A stretch of DNA of 64,000 bases. Source: Gammaproteobacteria bacterium. Its GTDB lineage: Bacteria > Pseudomonadota > Gammaproteobacteria > Eutrophobiales > Eutrophobiaceae. The stretch's first letter is position 1; every line of letters starts with the position of its first letter. Location: contig OZ220696.1 of NCBI GenBank assembly GCA_965116495.1, positions 3,520,001 through 3,584,000 on the forward strand, given 5' to 3'. Positions 11,669 through 33,046 of the stretch are shown here, in pieces. The notes under the pieces were generated by a model. The model did no database searches, was not told the origin of the DNA, and saw only the letters and a program-made list of their open reading frames with translations. The position numbers and the translations under genes are program-made.

Positions 11669-11688
11669 CGGCTGATGAGAAATCCGGG

Positions 11689-12984
11689 CTACATGTTTGC
11701 AATCAATGCCTGGCCGAATTCGCTGCAACTGACCTTTCTCGCACCCTCCATGAGTCGGGCAAAATCATAGGTGACGGTCTTGGCGGCTATCGTTTTATCC
11801 ATACCGGAAATGATGAGGTCTGCGGCATCCGTCCAGCCCAGGTAGCGCATCATCATCTCGCCGGAGAGTACCAGGGATCCCGGGTTGACCTTGTCCTGGT
11901 TGGCATACTTGGGCGCGGTGCCGTGAGTTGCCTCGAATACGGCATGTCCGGTGTCGTAGTTGATATTGCCTCCGGGCGCAATGCCGATACCGCCGACCTG
12001 TGCCGCCAGTGCATCGGACAGGTAATCACCGTTCAGGTTCATGGTGGCAATCACATCGAATTCTTTGGGCCGGGTCAATACCTGTTGCAGGGTAATATCG
12101 GCAATGGCGTCCTTGATCAGTATTTTGCCGCCCGCCAGTGCTTCTTCCTGTTCCTTGTTGGCAGCCGCCGAACCTTTTGCCGCACGGGTGCGTTCCCATT
12201 GATCCCAGGTGTAGGTCTGGTCGGCGAAGGAGTCCTCCGCTAACGCATAGCCCCAGTTACGGAACGCGCCTTCGGTGTATTTCATGATGTTGCCCTTGTG
12301 TACAAACGTCACGCTCTTGCGCTTATTGTCCAGCGCGTACCGGATTGCCGCCTTGACCAGGCGCCCCGTCCCTTCCTGTGATACCGGCTTGATACCGATA
12401 CCGGACGTCTCGGGAAAGCGGATTTTCCGGTAATAGTTGGGAAATGTTTCCTGCATGAACTCAAGAAATTTCCGGTTTTCTTCCGATCCCTGTTCAAACT
12501 CGATACCGGCGTAGATGTCTTCGGTGTTTTCCCGGAATATGACCATGTCCACCAGTTGCGGGTTTCTTGTCGGCGACGGTACGCCCTGAAACCAGCGCAC
12601 CGGACGCAGGCAGACATACAGGTCGAGGATCTGGCGCAGGGCGACGTTGAGGGAACGGATACCGCCGCCGATGGGCGTGGTGAGCGGGCCCTTGATGGCA
12701 ACCAGGAATTCCCGGCAGCGGTCAAGGGTCTCGTCCGGCAGCCAGGATCCGGTCAATTCGTTGGCCTTCTCCCCGGCGTAGACTTCCAGCCAATGGATCT
12801 CGCGCCGGCCGTTGTAGGCCCTGGCAACCGCCGCATCAAGTACCTGCCGGGTCGCACGCCAGACATCAGGCCCGATACCGTCACCTTCGATAAACGGTAT
12901 TACCGGGTGAGCCGGGACTTGCAGTCGTCCGTTCTCAATAGTGATCTTTTCCCCTTCAGGGGGGATCGATAACGCTGTGGCCAC
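11689..12984 (-). CDS. icd: NADP-dependent isocitrate dehydrogenase
   Basis: [50 protein letters not shown]. Confidence 0.97.
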
Positions 12985-13173
12985 GTTAAATCTCCTTGGT
13001 TGGTCAATTTTTGCAATAGCTTATCACATCTCTTACCGGGTAAGCAGTTGTAAGCACTGGGTAACAGCTCCCACGCGCCGGTCAGCAGGGCTGAAACAGG
13101 ATACATTTTGGATATGATCAGAAACGATCCGGGTCGCGCTCTACGTCAGTATCAATGCCCTTCAGAAAACTCC

Positions 13174-13351
13174 TCAGGTTCTCCTGTGACATTTTTTATG
13201 AAAAACCGCTTCAGCTTCGTCTTCCAGCATGGGCCCGATGACTTCCATCGGCCAGCAACGCGCCGAACGCGTGGTTGCCCCGCACCCGCGCCCTGACGGC
13301 CTCCTTGAATGCTATGCGCAGGTAATGTTCATCCACGTTCTTCATGTGCAT
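13174..13351 (-). pseudogene. Internally deleted nucleoside deaminase (TadA/guanine deaminase-like) remnant
   Basis: Manual translation gives N-terminus MKNVDEHYLRIAFKEAVRARVRGNHAFGALLADG joined out of frame to a C-terminus-like EVIGPMLEDEAEAVFH; no HAE/PCxxC core. Confidence 0.65.
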
Positions 13352-13394
13352 GAAAATACGTTATCCATCTGCACTAATCTGCGTAATCTGCGGA

Positions 13395-14075
13395 TTAGAT
13401 ACAACGTTCGATGAACTCCTGCCCGGTCATCACGTCGCCGAACTGCTGGATGATGGACTCCAGCGTCGCCTGGTGTTCGCGGTCGGACAGGGTGGAGCAG
13501 CAGTCTTCGACCATGACCACGTTGAAGTCCATGTCAAAAGCAGTGCGTGCAGTGGTCTCACAACAGATGTTAGTCTTTGTCCCGGCTATCAGCAGGATCT
13601 CGATGGCGCGGCTGCGCAACACCCGTTCCAGTTTCGAAGCACCCGGTGAGAGACAGCCGTAACGGTTCTTGACCAGGTGAATATCGTCCTCATCCACCTC
13701 CAGTTCATGCCATAGCTTGCCGCCCTCCTGCCCGGGCGCCATGTACTGCATGGTACGCTCGCGCACCTCCCCGGACACCATGTTGCTGAAGAAATTCTCC
13801 CATTCCGATTTGCCGCCGTTGCAATGGAACTCGCTGACGATCCAGATCACGTCGCCACCCCGCTTGCGCAGTTCCTGTGCCAGCCGGTTAATGTTACCGA
13901 CAGTCCCGCGGCTGGCCGGCACCTCGGCCGGCGCCCCCGGCTTGCAGAAGGCATTCTGCATGTCGATGACCACCAGGGCGCATTTTGCCGGGTCAAAACT
14001 GTCATAAAGGTGATAACGCCCGCGGCGCTTCATCACCCGCTCAACGATCTCGTCACTTATTCGTATATTGTGCAT
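13395..14075 (-). CDS. Isochorismatase-family cysteine hydrolase
   Basis: ALVVIDMQNAF, KNRY, GTKTNICCETTAR. Confidence 0.9.
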   Translation of the reverse strand: MHNIRISDEIVERVMKRRGRYHLYDSFDPAKCALVVIDMQNAFCKPGAPAEVPASRGTVGNINRLAQELRKRGGDVIWIVSEFHCNGGKSEWENFFSNMVSGEVRERTMQYMAPGQEGGKLWHELEVDEDDIHLVKNRYGCLSPGASKLERVLRSRAIEILLIAGTKTNICCETTARTAFDMDFNVVMVEDCCSTLSDREHQATLESIIQQFGDVMTGQEFIERCI

Positions 14076-14093
14076 AGCTTAAGAAAATTATAT

Positions 14094-14228
14094 GTATCCG
14101 CAGATTACGCAGATTGTTTATGTTGGTTCATTAATAATTTGGGACACCCACAAATTGACAGTTGTCCTCAATTTATGGGTGTCCCAAATTTCAGTCCCAA
14201 ATTTCAATTGCGTCATCTGCGGATAAAT
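14094..14228. repeat. Nested palindromic element: family F outer arms (ATCCGCAGATTACGCAGAT) around family C inner arms (AATTTGGGACACCC)
   Basis: atccgcagattacgcagatt at 14096; aatttgggacacccacaaattga...tcaatttatgggtgtcccaaatt at 14136-14190; ttgcgtcatctgcggataaa at the right end. Confidence 0.8.
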
Positions 14229-16282
14229 ATCTGGTCATGCAGGTACGGGTCGCCCGTCATGGCAGTCTCCGTTTCCAGCAGCGCGCCGCAGTCCGGACAG
14301 GAGAAAGAGCGCAGCAATACTTCGCCGCCGCTGGCATAGGGCCCGCCCAGGGTTTGCATGGCCGTTTCCTGCAGGCAGGCAGATTCCTTCCAGTTGTTGT
14401 CTCCCTCAGCCGGGTTCTCGCCGCAATGTTTGCAGGTGACGGGTGCGCCTGCAACAGGCGCGGGTTGCGCTCTGTTTTTTCTATGCGCTACCAGTCCGGT
14501 TCTCTTCTTCTCTGTGAGGGACGGGTCTGCTTCCCCTGTCCCGGCGTCCACGACGACGCCATACACGGTCTCTGCAAATTCCGCTGAAGTCAGCCCGTCC
14601 CGCACGTCGCGGGCCACTTCTTCCGGCGGGCGGGCCAGCGGATCGCCGTAACCGCCGCCGCCGTTCCAGCGGACGTACAAGGCATCCTTGCCCATTAACG
14701 GAAACACCCCCCAGTCTACGACCTGTTGCTCTGCCATTGCGGTACCTGCTTGTGCCGTGTCCTCACCGTTGATTGCACCAGGTTCATTGTTCTTGATCCA
14801 CATGTAGGCATTGGGAGATCCGGGATAACCGCCGGCCAGACCTTCGCTCATGGGGAACTTAGAGCCCTTGCCGGATACCACGTAGTGCATCCCGCCGTCC
14901 GGCGCATCGTGCGGTACGAAGGACAGCTCCATACCGACACCGCCGCGGTAACGCCCCGGCCCGCCGGAATCCTTAAGGCGCCGGCGGTACAGGTAACGGA
15001 TCGGGAAGGTGTATTCGACGGTCTCCACGTTGGCCATACGCGAGATGGGGTTCGGGATCTCGCCGCCCACCTCGATACCGTCCGCCCAGGCGCGGGCGCC
15101 GCCGGCGCCGGCGAAGGTCTCGGTCAGGATGCCGATGGCCTGTTTGTTGTGCTGGTTCCGGCCGAACAGGAACACCGCGAAATGGTTGGCGTGCCACACG
15201 GCCGTGGCCTCGTCAGCATACTTTTCACTGGCGCTGAGCATCTTGCCGATGGTGGTGCAGGCTGCATTGTTGACGGACTGTATGGCGCCGACAGTGGCGA
15301 CGGAGACCGGCGCCGGCCGCGTGCAGTTCACGACCGTCCCCTCCGGCGCGATCATGGTGATAGGGCTGATCACGCCTTCATTCCAGGTAATGTCGTAGCA
15401 CAGCAACGGGAACAGGGGCGCGAACAAGCCGCCCAGGGAGGCCCATCTGGTGCAGTTGATGGCGTACCGGCTCTGCTCGCTGGAGCCGCTAAAATCGAAG
15501 GTGAGCGTATCGTCCCGCTTGGTCATGGTCAGTTCGACCCGGCACACCTCATCCTCCACGCTCAGGTACTGGCGCGATTGCCATTGCCCGTCAGGCAGTT
15601 CCTGAAGGCGGGCGCGCAATTTTTCTTCAGACCTGATGATCAGGGTTTTGCAGGTCTCATCCACTGTCTCGAGCCCGTATTTTTCAATGAGGGCCAGCAT
15701 CCGCTCCCGGGCAACGTTGTTGCAGGCGATCATGGAATTCAGGTCCAGCGCCACCATGTCCGGCGCGCGCACCATGTTGAGGAAAGTATCCATGATAGCC
15801 CGGTTAATCTCTCCCTTTTCCACCAGCCTCAGCCCCGGTGAACTGAAGCCTTCGGTATAAATATTGTCCGCGTCGGGGCAGAACCCGCCGGGGTTGGTGG
15901 CGCCGATATCGTACACGTGCACAAAGCAGGCGCTCCAGGCCACCAGTTCTCTCCGGTAGTGAATGGGCGCCACCAGGTACACGTCGGAGGTATGCAGGGC
16001 CGCGGTGTAGGGGTCGTTCAGCAGGAACACGTCACCGGCATGAATGTCCCCGCGGAAGCGTCGGATGATGGATTTGCACGCCTCCGCGGCGCTGGTCAGG
16101 TGGTGCAGGAAACCCACACCGCCCATCAGCAGGGAACCGTCCGCCCGGTACAGGGATACCATGAGATCATGGCCCTCGTTGGTGATGGCGCTGCCGGATA
16201 CGTTTTTCAGGGTGATCACGGCCTCGTCCACGACCCGGAACAGGCGGTGGCGGATGATCGAAAAAGTGATCGGATCAATCAT
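14213..16282 (-). CDS. Hydantoinase B/oxoprolinase family protein with C-terminal Zn-ribbon
   Basis: IDPITFSII, NDPY..LHTSD, DSGGPGRYRGG, GGGGYGDPL; tail with CKHC...CPDCG. Confidence 0.9.
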   Translation of the reverse strand: MIDPITFSIIRHRLFRVVDEAVITLKNVSGSAITNEGHDLMVSLYRADGSLLMGGVGFLHHLTSAAEACKSIIRRFRGDIHAGDVFLLNDPYTAALHTSDVYLVAPIHYRRELVAWSACFVHVYDIGATNPGGFCPDADNIYTEGFSSPGLRLVEKGEINRAIMDTFLNMVRAPDMVALDLNSMIACNNVARERMLALIEKYGLETVDETCKTLIIRSEEKLRARLQELPDGQWQSRQYLSVEDEVCRVELTMTKRDDTLTFDFSGSSEQSRYAINCTRWASLGGLFAPLFPLLCYDITWNEGVISPITMIAPEGTVVNCTRPAPVSVATVGAIQSVNNAACTTIGKMLSASEKYADEATAVWHANHFAVFLFGRNQHNKQAIGILTETFAGAGGARAWADGIEVGGEIPNPISRMANVETVEYTFPIRYLYRRRLKDSGGPGRYRGGVGMELSFVPHDAPDGGMHYVVSGKGSKFPMSEGLAGGYPGSPNAYMWIKNNEPGAINGEDTAQAGTAMAEQQVVDWGVFPLMGKDALYVRWNGGGGYGDPLARPPEEVARDVRDGLTSAEFAETVYGVVVDAGTGEADPSLTEKKRTGLVAHRKNRAQPAPVAGAPVTCKHCGENPAEGDNNWKESACLQETAMQTLGGPYASGGEVLLRSFSCPDCGALLETETAMTGDPYLHDQIFIRR

Positions 16283-20424: not shown

Positions 20425-20655
20425 TCATATTTTTCCTATTTCTTTGGTATATTTCTGGATGCGCTTGAAGACTATTAAATTCATGTAGCTTAAAATGAAA
20501 AGGAGAAACATGCCTACCCAAAAAATCTCATTGATATTCCCTGAAAGATACAAATTCACTAATCCGCCTATGATAAGTACAAACAGCCCAACAAGCACAA
20601 AAAATAGTTTGGTTAAGAATGAAATTCTTTCTTTTAGCTCATCAAGTTTTGTCAT
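20425..20655 (-). CDS. Small AT-rich two-TM membrane protein, hypothetical
   Basis: Two hydrophobic segments; markedly AT-rich; start may be 20655 or 20670. Confidence 0.55.
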   Translation of the reverse strand: MTKLDELKERISFLTKLFFVLVGLFVLIIGGLVNLYLSGNINEIFWVGMFLLFILSYMNLIVFKRIQKYTKEIGKI

Positions 20656-20753
20656 GGGTAAATCATGCAATATATATTTTTGATATTCAAGTTGTTATAC
20701 GGGAGAATCTCAGGTACTGAAATATTATTTAATTTGGAACGGTAATCATCCTG

Positions 20754-22238
20754 ATGACATTTAAACTCCCCGACAGCACCGAACTGAAACGGCTGGCCGC
20801 TGAACTGAACCTGGCACTCGACGATAACCAGGCGGAAAAACTGCTTGACTACATGCAGCCTCTTGCCGCCGGATATGAATATATTGACCAGTGCGATAAC
20901 GAACTGCCGGAGTCGGCCTACCCGGGACGGGATTATTACTACCCGGAGGCGGAGGAAAACCCCTATGGCGCCTGGCTGGTGAAATGCCGGATCAAGGGCG
21001 CCCCGTCGGGCCCCTTGCTGGGCAAAAAGGTCGCGGTCAAGGACAATATCTTTGTCGCGGACCTGCCTCTCACGAACGGTTCGGGCGTCCTGGCCGATTT
21101 CGTTGCCGATTTCGATGCGACGGTCGTGGACAGGTTGCTCGGCGCCGGCGCCGAGATCGTCGGAAAGTCCGCCTGTGAGTACATGTGCCTGTCAGGCGGC
21201 AGCGCCACCTCAAGCGCAGGCATCGTGCAAAATCCCAGGAAACCGGGCTATTCCACCGGCGGGTCTTCCTCCGGCAGCGCGGCGCTGGTCGCCGCCGGTG
21301 AAGTGGATATTGCCCTGGGCACCGACCAGGGCGGTTCGGTACGCATACCGGCATGCTGGACCGGTGTGGTAGGGATGAAAGCAACCCGGGGCGTGGTCCC
21401 CTTCAGCGGCGGCGTGCCCATTGAGGCGTCCATAGAGTACATCGGTCCCCTGACTGACAGCGTTGCCGGTAATGCCCAGTGCCTGGAAGTCCTGGCCGCC
21501 GCCGGCGCAGGCGATTATACCGGCGCGTTGGGAAAAGACCCGGCAGGGTTGAAGATCGCCGTGGTCAGGGAAGGTTTCGGTTGGCCGTCTTCTGCGGCCG
21601 CGGTGGATCAATGCGTGAAATCCGCGGCGTCACAGTTCGCCTCGCTGGGGGCGGCGGTGGAAGAAATATCCATCCCCGAACACCTGACCGGCCCGGCAAT
21701 ATGGGGGGCCGTGGTTACGGACGGTTTCTGGCAGACCGTGAAACTGAACGGGGTGGGCTTTAACCATGGTGATGTTTATTCACCGGCATTGTACCGGGCA
21801 ATGCAGGACTGGACGGCCCGCACAGGAGATGCCCCGATCAACGCGCAACTAATCTGGCTGTTGGCCCGGCACCTGGAGAAGTACGACGGCCGCTACTACG
21901 CCAGGGCGAAGAACCTGGTGCGCAAACTGCGCGCAAGCTACGACGGGCCGTTACGGAACTATGACCTGTTGCTGATGCCCACCCTGGTATCCACGGCCGC
22001 ACCGAATCCGGAGTCACTGGAGCACGCAAGCGATGATGAGATAATGTACACCGCGTTCGGCAACACGCTGAACACCTGCCAGTTCAACGCCACCGGGCAT
22101 CCCGCCATCTCCATCCCGTGCGGCCGCATAGACGGCCTGCCGGTGGGCCTGATGCTGGTCGGTCGTTATTTTTCCGAAAAGACCATCTACCGGGCTGCCC
22201 ATGCGTTCGAACAATCGGTAGATTGGCAATCTTCGTGA
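20754..22238 (+). CDS. Amidase-signature family amidase
   Basis: AVKDN, GGSSSGSAA, GTDQGGSVRIPA. Confidence 0.93.
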   Translation: MTFKLPDSTELKRLAAELNLALDDNQAEKLLDYMQPLAAGYEYIDQCDNELPESAYPGRDYYYPEAEENPYGAWLVKCRIKGAPSGPLLGKKVAVKDNIFVADLPLTNGSGVLADFVADFDATVVDRLLGAGAEIVGKSACEYMCLSGGSATSSAGIVQNPRKPGYSTGGSSSGSAALVAAGEVDIALGTDQGGSVRIPACWTGVVGMKATRGVVPFSGGVPIEASIEYIGPLTDSVAGNAQCLEVLAAAGAGDYTGALGKDPAGLKIAVVREGFGWPSSAAAVDQCVKSAASQFASLGAAVEEISIPEHLTGPAIWGAVVTDGFWQTVKLNGVGFNHGDVYSPALYRAMQDWTARTGDAPINAQLIWLLARHLEKYDGRYYARAKNLVRKLRASYDGPLRNYDLLLMPTLVSTAAPNPESLEHASDDEIMYTAFGNTLNTCQFNATGHPAISIPCGRIDGLPVGLMLVGRYFSEKTIYRAAHAFEQSVDWQSS

Positions 22239-22515
22239 TATTTTTGTTGAAGGATATTATGCCGGAGCAGCATCATGGCTGATACCCTGTTTGAGACGGT
22301 CTTCAGGTTGATTCATACTTCTGCTTGTCTCTATGGTTGAACAACGATGCCATCCTGCACGGCTGTAGGCTTACAGCATCTTGCCACATGGCGGGCATCG
22401 GGTAATTGAGGATTAGTAATTGAAGCTATGGTGGTGAAACGTTGTTTCAAGGATTCAATCGCATGCATCGGGCCCTCGTCCTAAGTCTGAAGGAATATTA
22501 CTTTCCATTGTTAGT

Positions 22516-22551
22516 GGAAAAACCGCCTCTAGGGCGGTTTTTCCGCCCCAA
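22516..22551. repeat. Terminator-like hairpin, left copy of the direct repeat bounding the island
   Basis: ggaaaaaccgcctctagggcggtttttccgccccaa; similar to 31721-31756. Confidence 0.75.
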
Positions 22552-22602
22552 GCCAATATTTGCAATAACCTGGCAAGGGGTGAGTTGTACGCAAGTTATC
22601 AA

Positions 22603-22626
22603 ATATTGACGCGAACTTGTCAATAT
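22603..22626. promoter_or_regulatory. Inverted repeat overlapping a TTGAC -35-like element upstream of the islet operon
   Basis: atattgac-gcgaactt-gtcaatat (8-bp perfect arms, 8-bp spacer). Confidence 0.4.
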
Positions 22627-22693
22627 CAAGTATCAATGTTCAGTTATATTTGTTGACGGCGAAGACGACGGTCACTTCGAACCTGAAATACTA

Positions 22694-25600
22694 TTGTCGT
22701 TTTCTACCCATCAATTATACTCACTATATTCTTCAATATCAGAGTTTAAGAACCTGTCTGGTTTTCAGGTACCAATTCATTTTGCTAGCCCAGAGAACAT
22801 GAAAAAACATCGAATCGGCAAAGGTCTTCCTCGTTGTATAGGAAGTGATAAAAATGGCTTCGAGAGACTATGTAATACGCTTGGGCTAATCGATCGGCAG
22901 CATCGTAAAGTTCTACTGAAAAATGACTTTGTAAAAGAGAAAACAAGTACCCTTCGCAAATCCTTATCTCGTACTCGGCCCGGACCGGGTATGCGGGACC
23001 GAGAACTGTTATTCGAGCTTTATAGCGACCCAAACTCCCGTCTTGAACTCTGGTGCGAATCATTCAATGAAATTAAAACTGGTGAAGAAGAAAACCATTT
23101 AGAGACAGTCTTAGTTCCATCACTGGAATATTGCATTCTTACCAATCATATTCAAAATTTCTCTACGGAAAACAGTACCTCCGACATCAGTGAAGTTTTT
23201 GCTGAGTGGCCGGAGATTGTTCAGTGTTTGAAAGATGAGATTCCATGGGCCAATTTAGCAGGATATGTGTGGTCGGAAATCAAGAAGGATCTTGATAACT
23301 GGGACAACCTAACTGACGATGAACGCACACAAACCACACTGGTCACGTTTGCCGTGGCAACTATCGTCGATGATGATCGAATACTCAGCACCGCCATCCA
23401 GAAAGTCCCACAACTGGAAAATGAATTTAGTAGCCTGCTTAACGGCGGTAGTGACACAGAAAGAGTTGATGACCCAATCGAAGAAAAGGATATCGTGTTT
23501 CAGTGGAATGAGTTCTGTGGGACGTTAGGGATGTTAGCAGCAGAGGCGGTCGGCTCTCCCCCTAAGGTGGATGCTCTAGCCCAAATCAAGCTCACTGTAG
23601 GGGAACTAGATAAAATCGAGCAGTCTGTGAGAGCTCACCTTGTTACCATTTCATCAGAACGCCTGATCTCACGTGTAGAGGAACTCATTAATGAACTTAC
23701 TATAGAAGAGGCATTCTCATGGCTTGATGATACGGTCAGTAAGCAATTGAAAACTAGATGGCTAGAAGTAGGACAGTCATTGTCTCCCGATCAGATAAAA
23801 GAAGAGTTCAAGCGGCTGGAGGAAGAAGTTCCGAACGCATCTGAACATGTGCAGAACCTTGCGACTACCTTATCGGAAGTCACACAAAAACTTGATAATC
23901 TCCGCACAGAAGAACCAACTAACTTTAAAATACGTTGCCTCTGGGAGGAGAAACTTAATGAGCAGGAGGAGAAACTCCCCGATTTAAGGCGCGAACAGAG
24001 TAAGGCACGGGTCGAATTACTCAGCAAGCTTTCCCCATTAGGGGAAACCTTCAAGCTTAGCCAAGATGGGATTGAATCCCGTCCAAGCGGAGATACACCA
24101 GTTCCTGTTGAGGAAGATCCTTTCTCTGAGAAGTCAGATATAGATGAAAAGCGCCATGCCGAGCAAACAGAGGAAATCGAAATAGAAGATGTTTCTGTTA
24201 AGGATCTTGATGATGTTGATCCTGTTGACCAACCACAAAATATTGAGGAAACGCATAGCGAACAAAATATTGAAAATGATTCCGAACCGCAGAAACCTTT
24301 AACTATTACATCAACCCAAAGGGTTGATATTGGAAAACCAAAAAGTGGTTCAGTAGCGGATACACGCTTAGATCTTGCACGGACACGAGTGATTGATGCA
24401 TTGCTTGAATCACCGCCTCGCTTTGCCTACGTGGTACAAGTTTGCCGTCTGATTAACCGCTTTAGTCTTGATACTGATCTGCCACCAGTCAAACTTTTTG
24501 AGGCCATGTTGTTATCTGATCGTCTTCAGTTGCCTGATGCAAATGTGGCTTTTGAATTGAAGCAAGTTCTTGAGCAAGTTCTTGAGCAATTCTCTTCACC
24601 AGAAAAAATCACGGATGGTTCAAACCGTGACCTGCATGTAATGTTGGTGCTTGCAGGCACCTTGCGTCCAGCATTACTCGCGCCACAATCCGGTGCGTTA
24701 GTGTTCTTGACTGCGTTAAAGCCGAGTGAACGTTTAGGTACCGTATATCAACTTGCCAATGTGATTATCGAAGGGAGTGAAAAGCTCCAAGGGGTACGGG
24801 TCGATTCCTCCATTTTGAGAGGTGCTGATTCTAAAGCCGTTTGGGAAACTAAACGTGAACAACTCGTGTCGGATGTAGTCGAATGGAAAAAACAGGCACC
24901 GTACAGGACAATTAAGTATGCCCCTGCCACTAAGGTATGGCAGAAGTGGCTGAAGACAGACGGCTACATACATCAGTTGTTATCACCTATTGCCCCTGGC
25001 AGTAATGGTAATAGCACAACAATTAAGGAGATATTAACAAAATTAGGAGATAGAAAGTCGTTCGAGGAATTAGTCAAAAATACTGATCGATCAGAACTCG
25101 GACGTCGGAGGGGTGAGAACATCCACTCGAAAGCATTAAACCAACTCTATGCATTGACAAGGGAAGCCGTAGATCTTGCTCGTCGCCACCTCAGCTTGAA
25201 TAGTTCCATACCTGCTCAGTCAGATTTCCTGACCAACACGCTAGCAGATATACGTGATAGCTTTGAAAACTTGGCACCAATCGCACTCCAAGAGTTAGAC
25301 AGTTTTATGGGTGAAGAAAAATCACTACTCTCCGGGGCTGCGAATTCTGCCATCTACGCGCTCAAGCGGTTTCGTGAGATATTAACGACTGGATATACGG
25401 GGGGTGACCAAGAACCTGATCCCAAGGAACTTATTGGTTCCGGACTTTTCGGTTTTTCATCTATCCATATCGATGACAATGGTATGCCAGAAGGTGACCC
25501 TGAGCAGGCACTCAATGCCCTCTTGTCTACCGACAAGCCAGAAGAATATGAATCGGCGCTCGAACGATATTTGACAGTGGGTGATCTGAAGACAGCAAAG

Positions 25601-28600
25601 CGGGTCGCAAACTGGATTGAATACGAAGATCTTAATGATACAGGGGATATCCAAAATCGACTGGACGAAGTATTAGCTTCGGAAACCCAAAAATTGTACT
25701 TGCTCATAAATGAGACGAGGAAGGAGGTCGAGGTTGGACTTGGTCGTGGCACCATATCTGATGCGGAAAGAGATACATTTGATGCAGACTTAGTTCAATT
25801 AGAACTTCTTCTTGAAGAAGCGAGGGTACTACGTTTTGATCTTGAGAGGGATAAGCTGGAACATATAGTTGAAACTATCAAGAACAGCCGCGATTCAAAA
25901 ACGGAGAAGTTGAAAGTGTCGCTTGATGATCTCTCTCTTTCCTCTGAAAGCACGGAACATAAGCAGATTACACAATCAATTGAACAGGGTGATCTTGTAA
26001 CTGCGAATGAACTCATAGATCGGGTTCGCGACAACACATCCTATTCGGTCGAAACTGAACCGGGTAATCAAAGGCAAGTATTCCGGGAGTTTTATCCCAT
26101 CCGGTCAGATGAGATAGATAAAGAACTTGAGGTATTACGAAACAGCAAAGAAATTGTAGAGAAAATCAGAAAAAGTAGCGAGTTTGGAGGAATGGCACTC
26201 GGCGAAATCCCTGGTGCGCAGCGGGATTCTGCAAAGCAGATGCTTGAAGCATGGTATAGCCTGAAACGCGCAAATCGACTCGATGAAAAAGATAAGGCAA
26301 GTATAACTACGCTATTTTCGGGACTAGGGTTCATCGTACAAAAGGTGGCTATAAATCGATCAGGGCGGAATTTTGCGGAAGCTTTGATTAAAACAGATCC
26401 TTTACAAGCGCGAGAACGGTGCCCTATTCCTGCATTTGGATCATTTACTAAGGGTCAATATCGTCTCGTGTTTCTCTGGGGGCGACCCACCGAGGAGGAT
26501 ATTATCCAGCACGCTGATGAGCGTAGCGTAACGCAAGCCACAATTGTTCTCTACCTGGGACGACTCAGTAATGCTAGACGAGAGGGATTATCACGTATTT
26601 CTCGCGAGCGATCTCGGACCTTACTTATCCTAGATGAACTTTTGCTGGTTTTTCTCTGTGGTGAACGCGACTCGCGGACATTCAATCTCTTCTCATGTGC
26701 TATACCGTTCACTTATGTACAGCCATACGTGACGATCGCCGGTTCAGTCCCTCCAGAAATGTTTTATGGGCGTGAGCAAGAAATGCAAGAGATTGTAAAT
26801 CCACATGGTTCCGTCTTCATTTTTGGAGGCCGACAACTTGGGAAGACGGCGCTCCTTCGAGCAGTTGAGAGGATGTCGCATCGGCCGAAAGACGGTAGTT
26901 TTGCCGTTTTTATAGACCTCAAGGGTGCAGGGGTTGGTTATGATAGAGACGCGGCAGAAATATGGCTTGTAATCTGGCGCAGACTACGGGAACTTTCAGC
27001 CATACCTGATGAAATCAAGGAACCTAATAATAAGGGGAGAGGACGTATAGACGATTTCATGGATCGCTTATGTACCCGTTTCAGTGAGTCATCAGGACGT
27101 TCACTTTTTATTTTATTGGATGAGGCTGATAAGTTCCTGGAAGTGGATGCACGAGATTCAGGTATTTCAACGAAGGGATTTCGCGAGTCATCCAGGCTCA
27201 AAGCACTAATGGACAGAACCGGACGTTCTATCAAAGTTGTATTTGCAGGACTTCACAATGTGTTACGCACTGTTAAAGGGGCAAATCATCCGTTAGGTCA
27301 CTTCGGGGAGCCTATCGAGGTTGGTCCACTGCTTTCAGGTACTGGCTGGCAAAACGCAGAGGAGTTAATTCGCCAACCGCTCCTTGTGTCTGGATATCGA
27401 TTCAAGGACGATAGCCTCGTAACTCGCATTCTGGCCCAGACGAATTATTACCCAAGTCTCATCCAACTGTATGGTTCAGCGCTAATAAAGGAGATGCGGT
27501 CCCGGCAAATAACCGGCGCTCCACTCTACATCATAGATGACAAAATACTTGCTCAAACTTATCAGAATACAAATCTTCGAGAGATGATTCGTTCGAGGTT
27601 TCATCTAACCTTACAACTCGACCCGCGCTATGAGGTTATTGCGTATTCTATCGCAAATGATTGTATTGAACAGGAAGCTTTACTGGGCAAAGGAATCGAT
27701 CATCGACGGATTGATGAGGCTGTAAGAGACTGGTGGCCGGAAGGCTTTAAGGATATTGAGCCTCATACTGACGGGTTAAGAGCGCTTCTGGAGGAGATGG
27801 CAGGGCTCGGTGTGCTAAGGGTCGTCGATGAACAAGATGGTCGATATACTCTGCGTAATCCAAATGTCTTGCTGTTGATGGGGACAAAAAATGAAATCGC
27901 CGAAAACCTTCTCAGGAATCGTGAACCACCGCAGGAGTTCGAGCGCGAATATTTCAGGGCACGTGATCCACAGGAACCTGACGGTCCTTCTCGGAGTCCT
28001 CTTACGTTTCAACAGGAAGATATTTTACGTGCTGAGCGGAATGGTATTTCTCTTATCTGTGGTCTTCCGGCTTCCGGATTTGACTATGTTATACCGTTCC
28101 TCAGATCCCGTGGAGATAATGATTCCGTTATTGAGTTCAATGACTTAATTGACCAACGTGAATTTGAAAAAGAGGTGAGACGTCTGCATTCCAAACGACC
28201 TGACGGTACAACTATCTGTGTGATTTCCCATGAGGTGCCGTGGAGTGAAAGATGGGTTCAAGCTGCTTTGGATCAGGTTGACAGACTAAGCGCAAAGGGC
28301 CGGTATCTCCAGATAGTATTTATGACTGATCCGCAACACCTGTGGACACTTCAATCCGAACTCAAAAAGCTCAACCAGGCGGGGCTTCGGTGGAACTCAT
28401 TACGACCGTGGCGAGAAGGCTTCCTTCGCCAATGGATGGATGATGTCGGATTTAGCAATGACCCAACCATTCGCGAACAGATCATCGAGAAAACAGGTGG
28501 ATGGAAGACACTCCTCGAACGACTTTATTTTTTGAGCCAGGAAACTGGTAATTTGGAAAACAGCCTCAAAACACTGGAAAATGAATTCACGAATGGGGAT

Positions 28601-28873
28601 GATTCTATACTTCGCAAAAACTTTGCTCTTGATGTTCCCGGAGCAAATAAGGCGCTGCAGTGTCTTAATGATGTCGGTGGTAAAAATGAAACTACGACAG
28701 AGGAAATCATGAATTTCCTTGATAACTTCCCTGATGACTATGGCATAGATGGTGTCACACTAAAACGAACCCTTGAGTGGGCTGAGTTGCTTCATCTAGT
28801 ACGTAGGGCAGGCCATAACGCTTGGCGGTTGGACTCAATCGCGGCACATGCGATCTCTTCGATCGGACGTTGA
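22694..28873 (+). CDS. Giant (~2,060 aa) STAND-like/AAA P-loop ATPase
   Basis: PYV..GSVPPEMFYGRE, Walker A GGRQLGKT (26825-26848), Walker B LFILLDEAD, YYPSLIQL, wHTH-like LEEMAGLGVL; start may be ATG 22799. Confidence 0.8.
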   Translation: MSFSTHQLYSLYSSISEFKNLSGFQVPIHFASPENMKKHRIGKGLPRCIGSDKNGFERLCNTLGLIDRQHRKVLLKNDFVKEKTSTLRKSLSRTRPGPGMRDRELLFELYSDPNSRLELWCESFNEIKTGEEENHLETVLVPSLEYCILTNHIQNFSTENSTSDISEVFAEWPEIVQCLKDEIPWANLAGYVWSEIKKDLDNWDNLTDDERTQTTLVTFAVATIVDDDRILSTAIQKVPQLENEFSSLLNGGSDTERVDDPIEEKDIVFQWNEFCGTLGMLAAEAVGSPPKVDALAQIKLTVGELDKIEQSVRAHLVTISSERLISRVEELINELTIEEAFSWLDDTVSKQLKTRWLEVGQSLSPDQIKEEFKRLEEEVPNASEHVQNLATTLSEVTQKLDNLRTEEPTNFKIRCLWEEKLNEQEEKLPDLRREQSKARVELLSKLSPLGETFKLSQDGIESRPSGDTPVPVEEDPFSEKSDIDEKRHAEQTEEIEIEDVSVKDLDDVDPVDQPQNIEETHSEQNIENDSEPQKPLTITSTQRVDIGKPKSGSVADTRLDLARTRVIDALLESPPRFAYVVQVCRLINRFSLDTDLPPVKLFEAMLLSDRLQLPDANVAFELKQVLEQVLEQFSSPEKITDGSNRDLHVMLVLAGTLRPALLAPQSGALVFLTALKPSERLGTVYQLANVIIEGSEKLQGVRVDSSILRGADSKAVWETKREQLVSDVVEWKKQAPYRTIKYAPATKVWQKWLKTDGYIHQLLSPIAPGSNGNSTTIKEILTKLGDRKSFEELVKNTDRSELGRRRGENIHSKALNQLYALTREAVDLARRHLSLNSSIPAQSDFLTNTLADIRDSFENLAPIALQELDSFMGEEKSLLSGAANSAIYALKRFREILTTGYTGGDQEPDPKELIGSGLFGFSSIHIDDNGMPEGDPEQALNALLSTDKPEEYESALERYLTVGDLKTAKRVANWIEYEDLNDTGDIQNRLDEVLASETQKLYLLINETRKEVEVGLGRGTISDAERDTFDADLVQLELLLEEARVLRFDLERDKLEHIVETIKNSRDSKTEKLKVSLDDLSLSSESTEHKQITQSIEQGDLVTANELIDRVRDNTSYSVETEPGNQRQVFREFYPIRSDEIDKELEVLRNSKEIVEKIRKSSEFGGMALGEIPGAQRDSAKQMLEAWYSLKRANRLDEKDKASITTLFSGLGFIVQKVAINRSGRNFAEALIKTDPLQARERCPIPAFGSFTKGQYRLVFLWGRPTEEDIIQHADERSVTQATIVLYLGRLSNARREGLSRISRERSRTLLILDELLLVFLCGERDSRTFNLFSCAIPFTYVQPYVTIAGSVPPEMFYGREQEMQEIVNPHGSVFIFGGRQLGKTALLRAVERMSHRPKDGSFAVFIDLKGAGVGYDRDAAEIWLVIWRRLRELSAIPDEIKEPNNKGRGRIDDFMDRLCTRFSESSGRSLFILLDEADKFLEVDARDSGISTKGFRESSRLKALMDRTGRSIKVVFAGLHNVLRTVKGANHPLGHFGEPIEVGPLLSGTGWQNAEELIRQPLLVSGYRFKDDSLVTRILAQTNYYPSLIQLYGSALIKEMRSRQITGAPLYIIDDKILAQTYQNTNLREMIRSRFHLTLQLDPRYEVIAYSIANDCIEQEALLGKGIDHRRIDEAVRDWWPEGFKDIEPHTDGLRALLEEMAGLGVLRVVDEQDGRYTLRNPNVLLLMGTKNEIAENLLRNREPPQEFEREYFRARDPQEPDGPSRSPLTFQQEDILRAERNGISLICGLPASGFDYVIPFLRSRGDNDSVIEFNDLIDQREFEKEVRRLHSKRPDGTTICVISHEVPWSERWVQAALDQVDRLSAKGRYLQIVFMTDPQHLWTLQSELKKLNQAGLRWNSLRPWREGFLRQWMDDVGFSNDPTIREQIIEKTGGWKTLLERLYFLSQETGNLENSLKTLENEFTNGDDSILRKNFALDVPGANKALQCLNDVGGKNETTTEEIMNFLDNFPDDYGIDGVTLKRTLEWAELLHLVRRAGHNAWRLDSIAAHAISSIGR

Positions 28874-28876
28874 TGT

Positions 28877-29977
28877 GTGGATATCTGGAGTCTCCCAGGC
28901 CCGTCCTCGTTCGTTGATAATATCGAGAATGCGGTTCGGGATGGATCAAATGTAATTGTCAGGTTTCCAATAGATATCCCTGGTGGATTGAAGCGCGAAC
29001 TAAGAGAGCGGTTACACTCGCTATTTATCTGGAATTACATTGATGCATCGGATTCCAGCTTGAATCCACTTGCATTTCTGCACCAGCAAATTTCTCCAGA
29101 TGTCAGTGCGTTTAAGATAAGTAGCATTGCAGAGTTAGCAGATAATACTTCATTTCAGGGAAGGCTCATTTGGGTAGAGAACATCGATAATGAAATGTGG
29201 CCTGAATGGTCAACGTTTCTAAGAGCTTACTCGGATGCATGTCGGAATGTGGACCTTATGAACCGTACAGTATTCATTGTTCTATTATCCAAAGGAGCTA
29301 TTGCGGGCAAGATAACAAAAGAAGTAGCTCTCGTATCCTATGACTTCAGAGGAGTCGTGGATATGTTGGATCTATTTGTGTTAGCCTTACGGGAAGCTCC
29401 GGTAAGTAATAAACCCCGCGAATATCGTGCACTATTGGCACATATGGTTGCTCAGGTTGCACAGTGGGACATCTCTCTAGCTGGTCAGCTTTTAGCATTG
29501 CCACTCGAAGAAGTGCTCAGTCCCGATAATATCCTCCGGCAATATGCTTTAGATCGCGGTTGGACATCCGAAACACTTAATTGTTGGGAGAATGGAACGC
29601 AGGATGGCATGCCAGAAAAACCTGTCGTGCATTCTGCTTTATTGGAAGTGTGCGGAGAATCGCGAACAGTGCGCCAAAGAATTTGGGCAGCTCAGGCGGC
29701 GGTGCTGCTGCCTCTCATAGAAGAGCAGCGCATCAGCCTTATATCCCAAAATAGTCGGTATCTGAATCTACCTATTAAAACTGAAGATGGGCGGCAAATC
29801 GACGATCCACTCGATTTAGATGTTGGTCAATTAGCGTGGCATCTGGACCGGAGAGACAAACCTAAAGTGTTGAGGAAAAAAATCCGGAGTCTTCGCTTGG
29901 TCCGTAACAAACTGGCACACATGGAACCACTTAAACCAAACGAAGTTCTGAGAGTGATGTTATTCGCCAACTCGTGA
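28877..29977 (+). CDS. Hypothetical protein with C-terminal HEPN-like RNKLAH motif
   Basis: GTG start 3 nt after the upstream stop; LDVGQLAWHL...LVRNKLAH near the C-terminus. Confidence 0.6.
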   Translation: MDIWSLPGPSSFVDNIENAVRDGSNVIVRFPIDIPGGLKRELRERLHSLFIWNYIDASDSSLNPLAFLHQQISPDVSAFKISSIAELADNTSFQGRLIWVENIDNEMWPEWSTFLRAYSDACRNVDLMNRTVFIVLLSKGAIAGKITKEVALVSYDFRGVVDMLDLFVLALREAPVSNKPREYRALLAHMVAQVAQWDISLAGQLLALPLEEVLSPDNILRQYALDRGWTSETLNCWENGTQDGMPEKPVVHSALLEVCGESRTVRQRIWAAQAAVLLPLIEEQRISLISQNSRYLNLPIKTEDGRQIDDPLDLDVGQLAWHLDRRDKPKVLRKKIRSLRLVRNKLAHMEPLKPNEVLRVMLFANS

Positions 29978-29995
29978 ATCTTCTCTTTTCCCTCA

Positions 29996-30886
29996 ATGCC
30001 TGTCCTATACCCAATTGTTAAAGTAAGTCCGGAATGGCTTCGTGACCCCGAGGATATGGGAAGCAAGAAAAAGTTCTGGTATCTGGTTCCTAGGAGACAG
30101 AGAAGATATTGGCTTTTCAAATATCCACAGGCAGGTACTGGGCAACACTGGGCAGAGAAGATTGCCGCCGAGGTTGCGAGGTTACTGAATATTCAGTGTG
30201 CGAAAGTGGAATTGGCGGTTTTTGGAAGTGAGCAAGGATCGGTGACGGAAGCATTTACACATGGTAAGCGGGAATTAATTCATGGCAATCAGATTTTGGT
30301 AAGGGCTGTTTACGGCTACGATCCCGAGAGAAAATTCCATCAGTCAAGTCATAGTCTGGCGAATATCTGGCAGGCAATAGACAGAGTTTTTACAGAGAAC
30401 ACAGGTGCAAATCGGGCGAAACTCCGTCTTGCAGAGTACTTGGTTCTAGATGCATTGATTGGCAACACGGATCGCCATCACGAGAATTGGGGGATACTTC
30501 GAAAGCGCGTAGGTGACCGTTGGAAAGGGTCGGTGGCTCCATCATTCGATCATGCTTCCTCTTTGGGCCGGGAACTTCGGGATGTGAGACGTGAAAGGCT
30601 GTTAGCTGAGAATCGTGTAGGCGAATATGTCGAAAAGGGACGCGGCGCGATTTACTGGTCGGAAGATGACCTGCACGGTCCAAGCCCGCTGGAATTGGTA
30701 CGGCGGGCAGTCATTTCGTATCCAGACCTATTCCTTCCGGTTGGAAAGAAGCTGGAAAAGCTGGACGGGAAAGCTATGGAAGATATCGTGAACCACATAC
30801 CTGATGGTTGGATATCATCTTTCGCCAGAAAGTTTGCTGTTGCGCTACTGTGTTATAATTTTAAACAATTACAGGAACTATTCTGA
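29996..30886 (+). CDS. HipA/CtkA-like Ser/Thr kinase
   Basis: GSKKKFW, WLFKYP, WAEKIAAE, catalytic DALIGNTDRHHENWG, APSFDHASSLG. Confidence 0.88.
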   Translation: MPVLYPIVKVSPEWLRDPEDMGSKKKFWYLVPRRQRRYWLFKYPQAGTGQHWAEKIAAEVARLLNIQCAKVELAVFGSEQGSVTEAFTHGKRELIHGNQILVRAVYGYDPERKFHQSSHSLANIWQAIDRVFTENTGANRAKLRLAEYLVLDALIGNTDRHHENWGILRKRVGDRWKGSVAPSFDHASSLGRELRDVRRERLLAENRVGEYVEKGRGAIYWSEDDLHGPSPLELVRRAVISYPDLFLPVGKKLEKLDGKAMEDIVNHIPDGWISSFARKFAVALLCYNFKQLQELF

Positions 30887-31632
30887 TGAGTGAACGAACC
30901 TTATTTCTGGCCTGGCAGGACAGCGATTCCAGCAGGGCGTGGTTCCCAGTGGGACAGCTCGATGCGGACGTTGATCGTCCTTTGTATCGTTTCCGTTATA
31001 TCGGAGGAGCGAAGCGCGCGCAGGAAAACTCAGGGTTCCCTCTACTCGTTGAGTTTCCCTCACTAGGGGGGGATTATAAATCTCCAGAGTTGTTCCCGCT
31101 GTTCCAGAACCGGGTAATGAATAAGAAAAGGCCGGACTTTGCCGACTATCTGCGTAGTCTTGACTTTACGGAGGAAGCTGATCCTATTGAGATTCTATCG
31201 GTAAACGGAGGTCAACGCATAACGGACGCCTATGAGGTGTTTCCGAAAATCGAGAAGGACGATAGTGGGAACTTCTCTTGTCGGTTCTTTCTGCATGGTT
31301 GGCGGCACGTCAAACAAGCTGCCCAGGAGCGAATTAACGGTCTGGAATCTGGAGAACGGCTTTTCCTAACACGGGGACAGACCGGTCCTGAGACCGGGTT
31401 GGCAGTAGAAATCTGCACTGGTGATGGTTTTATGATTGGTTGGGCGCCACGCTATCTGGTTGCCGATTTTGTTGCGTCTAAGTCTGAAACTCCTGAATAT
31501 TCTGCCCATGTGGTGCGGGTTAATCCCCAGCCTGCCCTGTCAAAACAACGGGTTCTGATTGAGATGCGTGGCCGCTGGGAAACCCACGAACCCATGAGAG
31601 GTGAGGATTTTGTGCCTTTGGTTGACGGCTGA
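30886..31632 (+). CDS. HipS-like N-terminal domain plus HIRAN-like domain protein
   Basis: LFLAWQD..WFPVG..YRFRY..LFPLFQNRVM..RPD, then FFLHGWRH...IGWAPRY; TGATG coupling to the kinase. Confidence 0.75.
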   Translation: MSERTLFLAWQDSDSSRAWFPVGQLDADVDRPLYRFRYIGGAKRAQENSGFPLLVEFPSLGGDYKSPELFPLFQNRVMNKKRPDFADYLRSLDFTEEADPIEILSVNGGQRITDAYEVFPKIEKDDSGNFSCRFFLHGWRHVKQAAQERINGLESGERLFLTRGQTGPETGLAVEICTGDGFMIGWAPRYLVADFVASKSETPEYSAHVVRVNPQPALSKQRVLIEMRGRWETHEPMRGEDFVPLVDG

Positions 31633-31719
31633 GTGTCTGTCAGAGTCGGTCTTAAGATTGTCTAAGGCTTCGTCTTGCCTGTGTGATTGACTATCGTCAA
31701 TGACCCTGCTCCCGAGTAA

Positions 31720-31756
31720 CGAAAAAACCGCTATAGAGGCGGTTTTTTCGCCCCAA
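31720..31756. terminator. Bidirectional Rho-independent terminator-like hairpin, right copy of the island-bounding repeat
   Basis: cgaaaaaaccgctatagaggcggttttttcgccccaa between convergent genes. Confidence 0.75.
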
Positions 31757-31762
31757 TCCCGC

Positions 31763-32413
31763 TTACCCGAATACCCGGGGCTGAAAATCTGCCTGGTTGA
31801 CGATACTGGCACTGCTCCCAGTTGCCCGGATAACAAACAGCCCCTGTCGCTCCGCATGGACCTCGGCGGATTGCTCCACCCGCAAATACGCCAGCGCGCC
31901 GTACACCTGCTTGCCCCGGAAAACCGGCACGTGCCCCGTGAACCTTGCCAGCTTCTCCAGAAAGTGTGTCACATCCTGGGCGTGCAACGTAGTCTTCACT
32001 TCCACTACAACCACTACCTCGCTGTTGACGGCCAGGATGTCATACTCGTAATGTTCCCCGTTGCGCCGGCCCTTCACCCTGGTGTGGGTTGAACGCACAT
32101 TTATCCCTTGCGCCTGCAACAAGGCCACCAGGTCACCCTCCACCAGGCTCTCCATGAGTTTGCCCCATTGACCGGTGAAGAGGTTTTCCATCTCTCTCAT
32201 GCGTTTATCCATACGCCGGTCGGTTTCCTGCATCTGTCGGTCGGTTTCCTTCTGTTGCCGTTTGGTTTCCTTGCTCAGCCGGTCGGTTTCCTTCATCTGC
32301 CGGTCAGTTTCACGCATCCGCCGGGACAATTCCTCTTGCTCCTTTGATACCGAGCGCAGGATATTCCAGATCTCTTCGGGGGTGGCAGGTTGTTGGTCAG
32401 GGTTGCGTTCCAT
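31763..32413 (-). CDS. Coiled-coil PD-(D/E)XK nuclease-like protein (DUF3782-like)
   Basis: ETDRQMK heptad repeats, QWGKLMESLV, EYDILAVN...VVEVKTTL, AERQGLFVI. Confidence 0.75.
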   Translation of the reverse strand: MERNPDQQPATPEEIWNILRSVSKEQEELSRRMRETDRQMKETDRLSKETKRQQKETDRQMQETDRRMDKRMREMENLFTGQWGKLMESLVEGDLVALLQAQGINVRSTHTRVKGRRNGEHYEYDILAVNSEVVVVVEVKTTLHAQDVTHFLEKLARFTGHVPVFRGKQVYGALAYLRVEQSAEVHAERQGLFVIRATGSSASIVNQADFQPRVFG

Positions 32414-32485
32414 TGATACTTCCTCCTGTTCAGAAATGACAGGGCCAAGAGTAATAGGAAGGCCGCATTCCGTCAAATCCAGGTA

Positions 32486-33046
32486 TCAGTCCCCATTACC
32501 CTCCGTCGCAGGATTGTAGGTAGCCGTAATCCGGCCGGCCTCGTCGTAGAGACCGGTCATGATGCTGATCATTTTGTTGGTCTCATCAAGTTTTTCGTCC
32601 ACCCGGTCGATGTTCTTCGATTGCTCCGTCAGGATGCGCCTGCGCAGTTCGGCGTAATTGTCGGTCATTTTCCTGCCCTTGGCCGTTACCCGGTAGGCGG
32701 CGGTCTTGCGGCTCCTGTCCTTGATCCGTTCGCAGAACCCGGTCTTCACCAGTTTCCTCAGGCAATACTGGATATTGGGGATATCATCCCGGTTCAACTG
32801 CCGGGCGATGTCCGTGGCGCTCTTGGGCCGGTCATGCATGCGGATGATATGGATGATGACGGCCTCGATATAACTCAGTTCGCCCATGCCGGTCACCCCG
32901 GCAAGTTGCGTCACCCATCGTTCAAAGGCCTGCTGAAAACGCAATATGCTCCATTCGAATTCCGTGGAAATGGCTTCATGGGATGAACTGGCAAGGTGCC
33001 AGGCCCGGTAACGGGATGCTTCAAAGTTTTCCTGTTTTTTCTTCAT
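32486..33046 (-). CDS. MarR-type winged-helix transcriptional regulator
   Basis: TEFEWS, LNRDDIPNIQYCLRKL, YRVTAKG. Confidence 0.8.
   Translation of the reverse strand: MKKKQENFEASRYRAWHLASSSHEAISTEFEWSILRFQQAFERWVTQLAGVTGMGELSYIEAVIIHIIRMHDRPKSATDIARQLNRDDIPNIQYCLRKLVKTGFCERIKDRSRKTAAYRVTAKGRKMTDNYAELRRRILTEQSKNIDRVDEKLDETNKMISIMTGLYDEAGRITATYNPATEGNGD

Follow-up and report, generated by a model that had tools for sequence, protein, structure and literature searches.

Four co-oriented genes in a stretch of bacterial DNA raise the question of whether they work as one conflict system or as two that lie side by side. The stretch, called the window here, comprises 64,000 nucleotides of contig OZ220696.1 from a Gammaproteobacteria bacterium, and the genes are termed A, B, C and D in the order in which they are read. 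An earlier reading of the same DNA (the sequence-only reading) had joined a giant STAND-like ATPase, a protein with a HEPN motif, a HipA-like kinase and a HIRAN protein into one candidate anti-phage operon. Its domain calls are borne out by motifs, Pfam and PADLOC, and an anti-phage role is plausible for the ATPase and HEPN pair; the single four-gene system with a kinase arm is unsupported. We find that the four genes are two separate units brought side by side, not one conserved system. The account that we favour, and hold to be fairly probable, is of two independent modules in one toxin-antitoxin hotspot: a hipIN pair (C and D) and a conserved A+B cassette, likely an ATP-gated anti-phage RNase. 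The main features are as follows.

22799..28873, plus strand: gene A, 2024 residues from the ATG that is the database-called start
22799..23479, plus strand: residues 1–227 of A, the variable N-terminal slot and predicted sensor
26825..26848, plus strand: Walker A motif GGRQLGKT of the active STAND module of A, in 72/72 aligned relatives
27113..27130, plus strand: Walker B motif LLDEAD of A, with DE retained in 72/72
28061..28078, plus strand: degenerate P-loop GLPASG in the second AAA+ module of A, where GxxxxGK[ST] occurs in 0/72
28877..29977, plus strand: gene B, 366 residues, an inactive ORC/Cdc6/STAND module (1 to ~260) and a C-terminal HEPN-type domain
29903..29920, plus strand: HEPN RxxxxH motif RNKLAH of B (R343, H348), with Rx4H in 62/62 aligned relatives
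29996..30886, plus strand: gene C, 296 residues, a HipI-type HipA-family kinase (PDC-M03A), separate module
30886..31632, plus strand: gene D, 248 residues, a HipN-type HipS-like and HIRAN protein (PDC-M03B), separate module

The coordinates confirm that A and B lie 3 nt apart and B and C 18 nt apart, and that C and D overlap in TGATG, as the sequence-only reading had it. The frame of gene A is already open from a TTG at 22694. A single Logan contig from a related population covers 22624–31640 unbroken, so the four-gene layout is not an assembly artefact. The block is also AT-richer than its flanks, as had been noticed: its GC content is 46.2% against 54.7% for the genome, among the lowest 0.7% of 4333 9-kb genomic windows. 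GC content at third codon positions (GC3) is 0.41, 0.42, 0.46 and 0.51 for A, B, C and D, in the lowest 1–7% of 1983 long open reading frames (ORFs), for which the median is 0.66. Counts of promoters and terminators were not above those in shuffled sequence.

Gene A encodes a giant ATPase of the STAND/ORC-Cdc6 type. Alignment and modelling give the order of a variable N-terminal domain, a coiled coil, an acidic linker, a helical region, an α/β domain and two STAND modules, each with a winged helix-turn-helix (wHTH); by motifs and predicted fold the first module is active and the second inactive. The model covers residues 1085–2024 (predicted local distance difference test, pLDDT, 91; predicted template modelling score, pTM, 0.83) and shows the α/β domain followed by two AAA+ modules, each with a terminal winged-helix-type element. 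A Foldseek search with this C-terminal half placed the archaeal STAND protein 2qen at the top (TM score 0.63), followed by 2fna, Cdc6/Orc1 and proteins with tandem AAA+ modules. Sequence searches of the PDB gave no significant match. The Walker A motif (residues 1343–1350) is identical in all 72 aligned relatives and the DE of Walker B (residues 1439–1444) is likewise retained; the second AAA+ module lacks Walker A in every one of them. For the N-terminal half, 39 relatives were scanned with Pfam: 36 gave no match, one gave sigma-70, and there were two weak matches at chance level.

Gene B was modelled with pLDDT 92 and pTM 0.89. Residues 1–264 match the folds of Cdc6, ORC, Avs5 and BrxC with Z scores of 9.6–10.7 (Avs5, 10.4), and Walker A is present in this module in none of 62 relatives. 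The helical C-terminus carries the pattern RNxLAH, in which R343 is kept in 65/65 sequences and H348 in 64/65. In the window copy the motif spans residues 343–348 at the end of a model helix (330–347). With Rx4-6H at a helix end in an all-helical domain, B is a predicted member of the HEPN RNase superfamily, as judged from alignment and model. Profile-profile comparison of B with the C-terminal half of A was not significant (probability 0.5). The B family is large, with 2,797 clusters (50% identity) at E ≤ 0.001 and 964 at E ≤ 1e-30, and the ESM Atlas holds unnamed clusters resembling B. Neither A nor B of the window matched any PADLOC or NCBIfam model, nor did the 62 relatives of B. Of 30 further proteins scanned in this way, 29 of them relatives of A and one a long relative of B, two gave marginal matches only.

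A and B travel together across phyla. A scan of GTDB found 456 places that encode an A relative, and the linkage counts refer to 80 loci kept from these. B lies downstream of A in 68 of the 80, which is 68 of the 77 with room downstream, since three loci stop at a contig end; the remaining nine have no B in the DNA present. The gap is below 30 nt in nearly all, with a 1.9-kb insert in L046 and a broken B in L001, L047 and L073. No third gene is conserved beside A+B among the 80 loci. Within the order, B turned up in a single genome out of 126; it was in none of 400 other genomes of the class, and full-length A was in none of 60 relatives.

The hipIN pair is independent of this cassette in most genomes. 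Within the fetched flanks of A relatives it occurs once in 80 loci, in the cyanobacterial L078, where it lies upstream of a sigma-70-fused A and the kinase is split. Of the 68 A+B genomes 50 were searched, and hipN was not found in 33 of them. A metagenome scan with one protein yielded one locus, which has A+B and lacks hipIN. The 400 other genomes of the class include 10 with full-length HipN (E < 1e-60), or 9 without the unpublished G164.

Genes C and D are readily assigned. C matches Pfam HipA_C above the cut-off (E 1e-14) and PADLOC PDC-M03A over residues 5–293 (E 2e-83), and has the catalytic motifs FKYP, DRHHENW (159–165) and SFDHA. D matches PDC-M03B over residues 1–245 (E 1e-73) and, below the cut-off, Pfam HIRAN over 130–195 (E 3e-4). 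Its HipS-like part was deduced from the PDC-M03B match and the hipIN paper, not from a HipS profile. In the passages on this family, Gerdes et al. (2021, mBio PMC8262856; bioRxiv 2021.04.14.439929) describe hipIN as a kinase gene followed by an antitoxin gene with HipS-like and HIRAN parts. C and D share with hipIN the small HipA-family kinase (~300 residues) lacking the N-subdomain, then HipS-like and HIRAN parts, with full-length profile matches and no notable difference. Judged by these profiles, C+D is an ordinary member of hipIN, PADLOC PDC-M03, and the kinase pair already has a name. Neutralisation of the kinase toxicity by HipN is a prediction in what Gerdes et al. 2021 (PMC8262856) report of it, and our literature searches found no functional test of the predicted hipIN family. 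Extending that prediction, and separately from A+B, HipN would use its HipS-like domain to restrain the HipI kinase, and an encounter of HIRAN with DNA ends would free the kinase. Since A+B sits immediately upstream, co-transcription of the two modules is possible at this locus.

Comparison with congeners places both modules in a recurrent site. The interval between the amidase and the MarR/racemase genes (window 22238–32486; congener loci L108–L127) is a genus-wide hotspot for toxin-antitoxin-like genes, and three further features of it are needed below.

22518..22542, no strand: left hairpin, A/T-tailed and ahead of the block on its left side, in the same slot in three congeners too
31723..31747, no strand: right hairpin, 87% identical over 38 nt to the left one and just beyond the 3' end of the PD-(D/E)XK gene
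31763..32476, minus strand: gene for a coiled-coil and PD-(D/E)XK (Hjc-like) protein, present in several genomic copies and also part of the cargo of the slot

The slot is empty (87 bp) in congeners G015 and G022. In G001, G003, G008 and G012 hipIN directly follows the amidase with no A+B, and in G002 and G018 hipN is there alone. Other congeners carry PIN, NYN-like or Phd-like genes, labels read from translations. Altogether hipN is in 7 of 20 fetched congener regions, all of which lack B. The congeners thus give a clean picture of one chromosomal slot gaining and losing conflict genes.

The N-terminus of A behaves as a swappable slot. A domain of the window-type family is found there in 47 of 77 A relatives, and in 15 fewer than 60 residues are present, some because of contig ends; elsewhere sigma-70 or pPIWI-RE takes its place. 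Long pPIWI-RE proteins fall into 44 clusters; the C-terminal half of A is present in 43 of these (E ≤ 6e-83), and the P-loop GGRRLGK[TS] likewise in 43. These clusters mostly belong to one alphaproteobacterial lineage, and the fusion may represent one or few events. On plasmids of Microvirga, Bradyrhizobium and Azospirillum, A is fused behind pPIWI-RE in the third gene of a four-gene run, and in the Bradyrhizobium run Pfam names the first two genes as the restriction endonuclease (REase) and Z-domain genes of the pPIWI-RE island. In these runs, at L130:139-16343, L131:651-16092 and L135:2559-18502, the order is REase, DinG-like gene, pPIWI-RE–A fusion (3100–3394 residues) and B with HEPN and P-loop kinase; in two of the three a WYL gene is divergent from the run.

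The fused form of B has a C-terminal P-loop domain and occurs in four alphaproteobacterial plasmid loci (E ≤ 1e-39), as the partner of pPIWI-RE–A fusions and in one Agrobacterium plasmid; Pfam AAA_33 was found in the three that were scanned. We read this domain as a putative polynucleotide kinase (PNK). The RNase PNK Las1–Grc3, in the material available on it, provides a precedent for pairing HEPN with a kinase.

A has a longer N-terminus at three cyanobacterial loci and in one plasmid-borne relative, and Pfam finds sigma-70 regions 1.2–4 in L063 and L078. L063, L064 and L080 have a phospholipase D-type (PLD) SNF2 helicase in place of B downstream. Across the cyanobacterial L063, L064, L078, L080 and L132, sigma-70 regions are fused to or lie just ahead of an A-family ATPase, and a PLD-SNF2 helicase stands in for B wherever downstream DNA is available. 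Sigma-70 on A is a possible decoy for phage anti-sigma factors. Because the N-terminus is replaced by sigma-70 or pPIWI-RE, or is absent, in relatives, we predict that it is a sensor, and its exchange, seen by sequence comparison, is the best available argument for that role. The pPIWI-RE slot, the sigma-70 slot and the kinase-bearing B are new, and at the level of sequence they support a proposed sensor-switch-RNase model of abortive defence. Literature searches, partly weak in that they missed the founding pPIWI-RE paper itself, found neither the A+B pair nor the pPIWI-RE–A fusion described.

Among the known systems with which we compared A+B, it comes nearest to the predicted nSTAND2 two-gene counter-invader operon, whose effector genes are given in the relevant passages of Kaur et al. 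(2021, eLife PMC8195603) as nSTAND2, wHTH and tetratricopeptide repeats (TPRs) with HEPN (532–637 residues) or with GT4 (756–768 residues). As portrayed there, it resembles A+B in an active STAND gene followed by an inactive STAND-HEPN gene, in mobility and in a proposed hetero-oligomer, whereas B has 366 residues, no TPRs and no PF20702, and A has about 2000 residues and a second dead STAND module. PF20702 (nSTAND2) was found in 0/62 B relatives at E ≤ 0.05, in 0/30 A segments and nowhere in the window; in the B relatives of 525–549 residues the extra length is the kinase domain after HEPN, not TPRs.

Avs and NLR-like STAND proteins, in the parts of Lee et al. (2026, Nature PMC13581612) that bear on them, resemble A in a STAND switch predicted to activate an effector by oligomerisation, and A has the same intact Walker A and B, helical lid and wHTH. 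In that source Avs combines an N-terminal effector with a C-terminal repeat sensor, whereas A has a dead AAA+ module at the C-terminus and no TPR or WD40 sensor; its ATPase is in the C-terminal half, its variable domain is at the N-terminus, and a gene of its own encodes the effector. PADLOC Avs models gave no match in the window or in 30 relatives. Four accessions and five names were not found in seven supplement files of Lee et al. 2026, one of them truncated, and the clade tables (589 clades) of that study may list the family.

In BREX, the active ATPase of the ORC/Cdc6 clade with a coiled coil, BrxC, accompanies an inactive STAND protein, BrxB or BrxF, as in A+B; the relevant text of Rakesh and Krishnan (2026, PMC12839542) treats BrxC and BrxB as an active and inactive STAND pair. 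Unlike BREX as described there, A+B comes without PglZ or a methyltransferase, and B retains the helical lid and bears a HEPN domain. Only two loci have an Eco57I-type methyltransferase nearby. For the three-gene pPIWI-RE island, the passages available from Burroughs et al. (2013, PMC3702460) report a rare zincin fusion and no ATPase fusion. Alphaproteobacterial relatives share features with this island and with Las1–Grc3, as far as these are described, through the A–pPIWI-RE and HEPN-kinase fusions, and the window copy has neither. No such A+B pair appears in the available passages of a HEPN survey, the pPIWI-RE paper, a ParA preprint or a Dnd paper. We rejected membership of A+B in nSTAND2 (profile, size, missing TPRs), in Avs (different domain order, no PADLOC match), in BREX (no conserved PglZ or methyltransferase) and in SspFGH/Dnd.

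Neighbours of A relatives were scanned at 47 of the 80 loci, covering the nearest two ORFs of at least 150 residues on each side and 11 hand-picked ORFs. By our judgement 21 of the 47 have defence-type neighbours, and four more have mobile-element genes only. The defence-type genes include DarTG twice, pPIWI-RE, WYL three times, type I and III restriction-modification (RM), Eco57I-type methyltransferases, HNH, Vsr/Z1, PLD-SNF2 helicases and TatD/QueC. A relatives are on 25 plasmid records, 7 of which are annotated as pPIWI-RE RNaseH proteins. Three further loci are recorded for their own sake: an Agrobacterium plasmid (L133:5743-18883) with WYL, A, B with kinase, an uncharacterised gene, and ThiF and patatin genes resembling a CBASS-type cassette; two divergent A-family genes lacking B beside a DUF2357 gene (L009:3133-8904 and 9941-15976); and a protein of 1951 residues with a sacsin-type domain and DarT directly after A+B, adjoining a macro-domain gene (L028:15475-21985).

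By analogy with STAND, ORC and HEPN biology, we propose how the cassette would act. The variable N-terminal domain of A would sense the invader; on binding ATP, A would build a ring or arc of the ORC kind, a hetero-assembly with the dead modules of A and of B as packing subunits. This would pair two HEPN domains of B into a composite active site, and the RNA cleavage that followed would arrest translation and growth and abort the infection. A wider reading, which we put forward only tentatively, treats A+B as a general immune transducer with a plug-in N-terminal sensor: the 227-residue domain in the window copy, a sigma-70 decoy in cyanobacteria and a whole PIWI-RE in alphaproteobacteria. Its PIWI form would then be an abortive system of NLR-like design, programmed by guides and corresponding in bacteria to RNase PNK, in which guide-loaded PIWI would fire an ORC-like STAND assembly and so a HEPN RNase with its own polynucleotide kinase.

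Several observations weigh against the favoured account of a hipIN pair beside an independent anti-phage RNase cassette. The HEPN call depends on the motif and on Pfam matches below the cut-off (Swt1-like HEPN in 10 of 62 B members; best HEPN_Swt1 E 8e-4), the fold match lists being filled by the AAA+ part (1–264). B is not obligatory, because nine A loci lack it despite downstream DNA, some continuing into PLD-SNF2 helicase or type III RM genes. At 22 of the 47 scanned loci nothing is clearly defensive, and the tally of neighbours is one without a random-gene control. A search of 50,697 phage records turned up no relative of A. On the separation of the modules, no terminator-like site was found between B and C, and hipN is somewhere in 17 of 50 A+B genomes against 10 of 400 in the class sample. 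A 9822-bp contig of run X8 carries the whole four-gene block at ~88% identity; its indels are balanced and the genes stay in frame. Contigs of run X7 extend into the same PD-(D/E)XK gene. We read the X8 block as inheritance in a sister lineage, but it shows that the arrangement is a lasting one. The end of hipI in G002 is joined directly to the left hairpin region, so A+B may have been lost by deletion in some congeners. Shared genomic background would suffice to explain the 17 of 50, because hipN and A+B lie 0.33–4.9 Mb apart in the 12 genomes where one contig has both and hipN is in 7 of 20 congener regions lacking B.

Of the other explanations, the one that survives best, unlikely as we judge it, is that A is mainly a DNA-binding machine of the ORC, TnsC or BrxC kind that recognises or restricts foreign DNA directly or assists restriction systems, with the HEPN domain of B only a backup. 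Its nearest folds (Cdc6/ORC, BrxC, TnsC) and winged-helix-type endings agree with this, as do the swaps of partner to PLD-SNF2 helicase or type III RM, the fusion into the pPIWI-RE/DinG/REase island and, from the BREX material cited, BrxC with BrxB as a known active and inactive STAND pair. However, A+B has no conserved neighbour of the methyltransferase, PglZ or helicase type, and the RxxxxH of B is the only invariant catalytic-looking motif outside the ATPase. A restriction-nuclease-like reading of A around residues 1160–1290 is suggested by the secondary structure of the model, but no conserved PD-(D/E)XK acidic triad is visible by eye in the alignment of the α/β domain.

That A+B is a selfish addiction module, with B as toxin, A as antidote or scaffold and no antiviral role, seems to us improbable. 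A slot full of toxin-antitoxin genes, a patchy distribution, the plasmid-borne A relatives and the nine loci with A and no B would suit it (B without A was not searched genome-wide), yet an ATPase of 2000 residues with invariant Walker motifs and swappable sensor-like N-termini far exceeds the needs of addiction, and WYL regulators and defence neighbours recur. Least credible of all is one integrated four-gene system, with a HIRAN-gated kinase as regulator or backup of the ATPase-HEPN arm: tight co-orientation, the missing terminator, the block kept in the sister lineage, hipIN upstream of A in L078 and hipN in 17 of 50 genomes speak for it, but the pairs adjoin in only 1 of 80 loci and are megabases or at least 0.33 Mb apart in the 12 genomes that have both on a single contig, four congeners have hipIN at this very site without A+B, and B-lacking congeners carry hipN at a similar background rate. 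The kinase arm of the sequence-only reading loses support with it, hipIN being missing from 33 of 50 A+B genomes as well; that reading had named failure to find the two pairs together elsewhere as one refutation, which does not fully apply, because they do occur together in the sister lineage and in L078.

If the favoured account of A+B as an ATP-gated RNase cassette is right, it would describe an NLR-like design in which an N-terminal sensor and dead ATPase modules couple to a separate RNase, in a large family (2,797 B clusters, 456 GTDB places for A) that no PADLOC or NCBIfam model catalogues. For the PIWI-RE systems, which are poorly understood, the fusion with pPIWI-RE would supply an effector that can be tested, and the fusion with sigma-70 suggests sensing of a bait type.

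Finally, we considered the surroundings of the block. Pfam names an amidase (E 2e-81) and a MarR-type regulator on the flanks; the CoA-ligase, racemase and thiolase labels were read from translations with no profile scan. Between the CoA-ligase-like gene and the amidase, at 20425–20670, lies an AT-rich ORF of 81 residues with two membrane helices, for which Pfam gave nothing significant. The idea that the two hairpins bound a mobile element with the four genes as its load was rejected as unproven, because there are two hairpin copies in the genome, the block has no integrase or transposase, and the right hairpin is skipped in related contigs. Window positions 22347–22625 match pieces of L111 (G018) at 85–87%, including the start of a minus-strand ORF of 165 residues, and look like a gene remnant with a shared hairpin/promoter element. 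The genome has at least eight stretches paralogous to the PD-(D/E)XK gene, and four of these form a cluster at 3.634–3.636 Mb.

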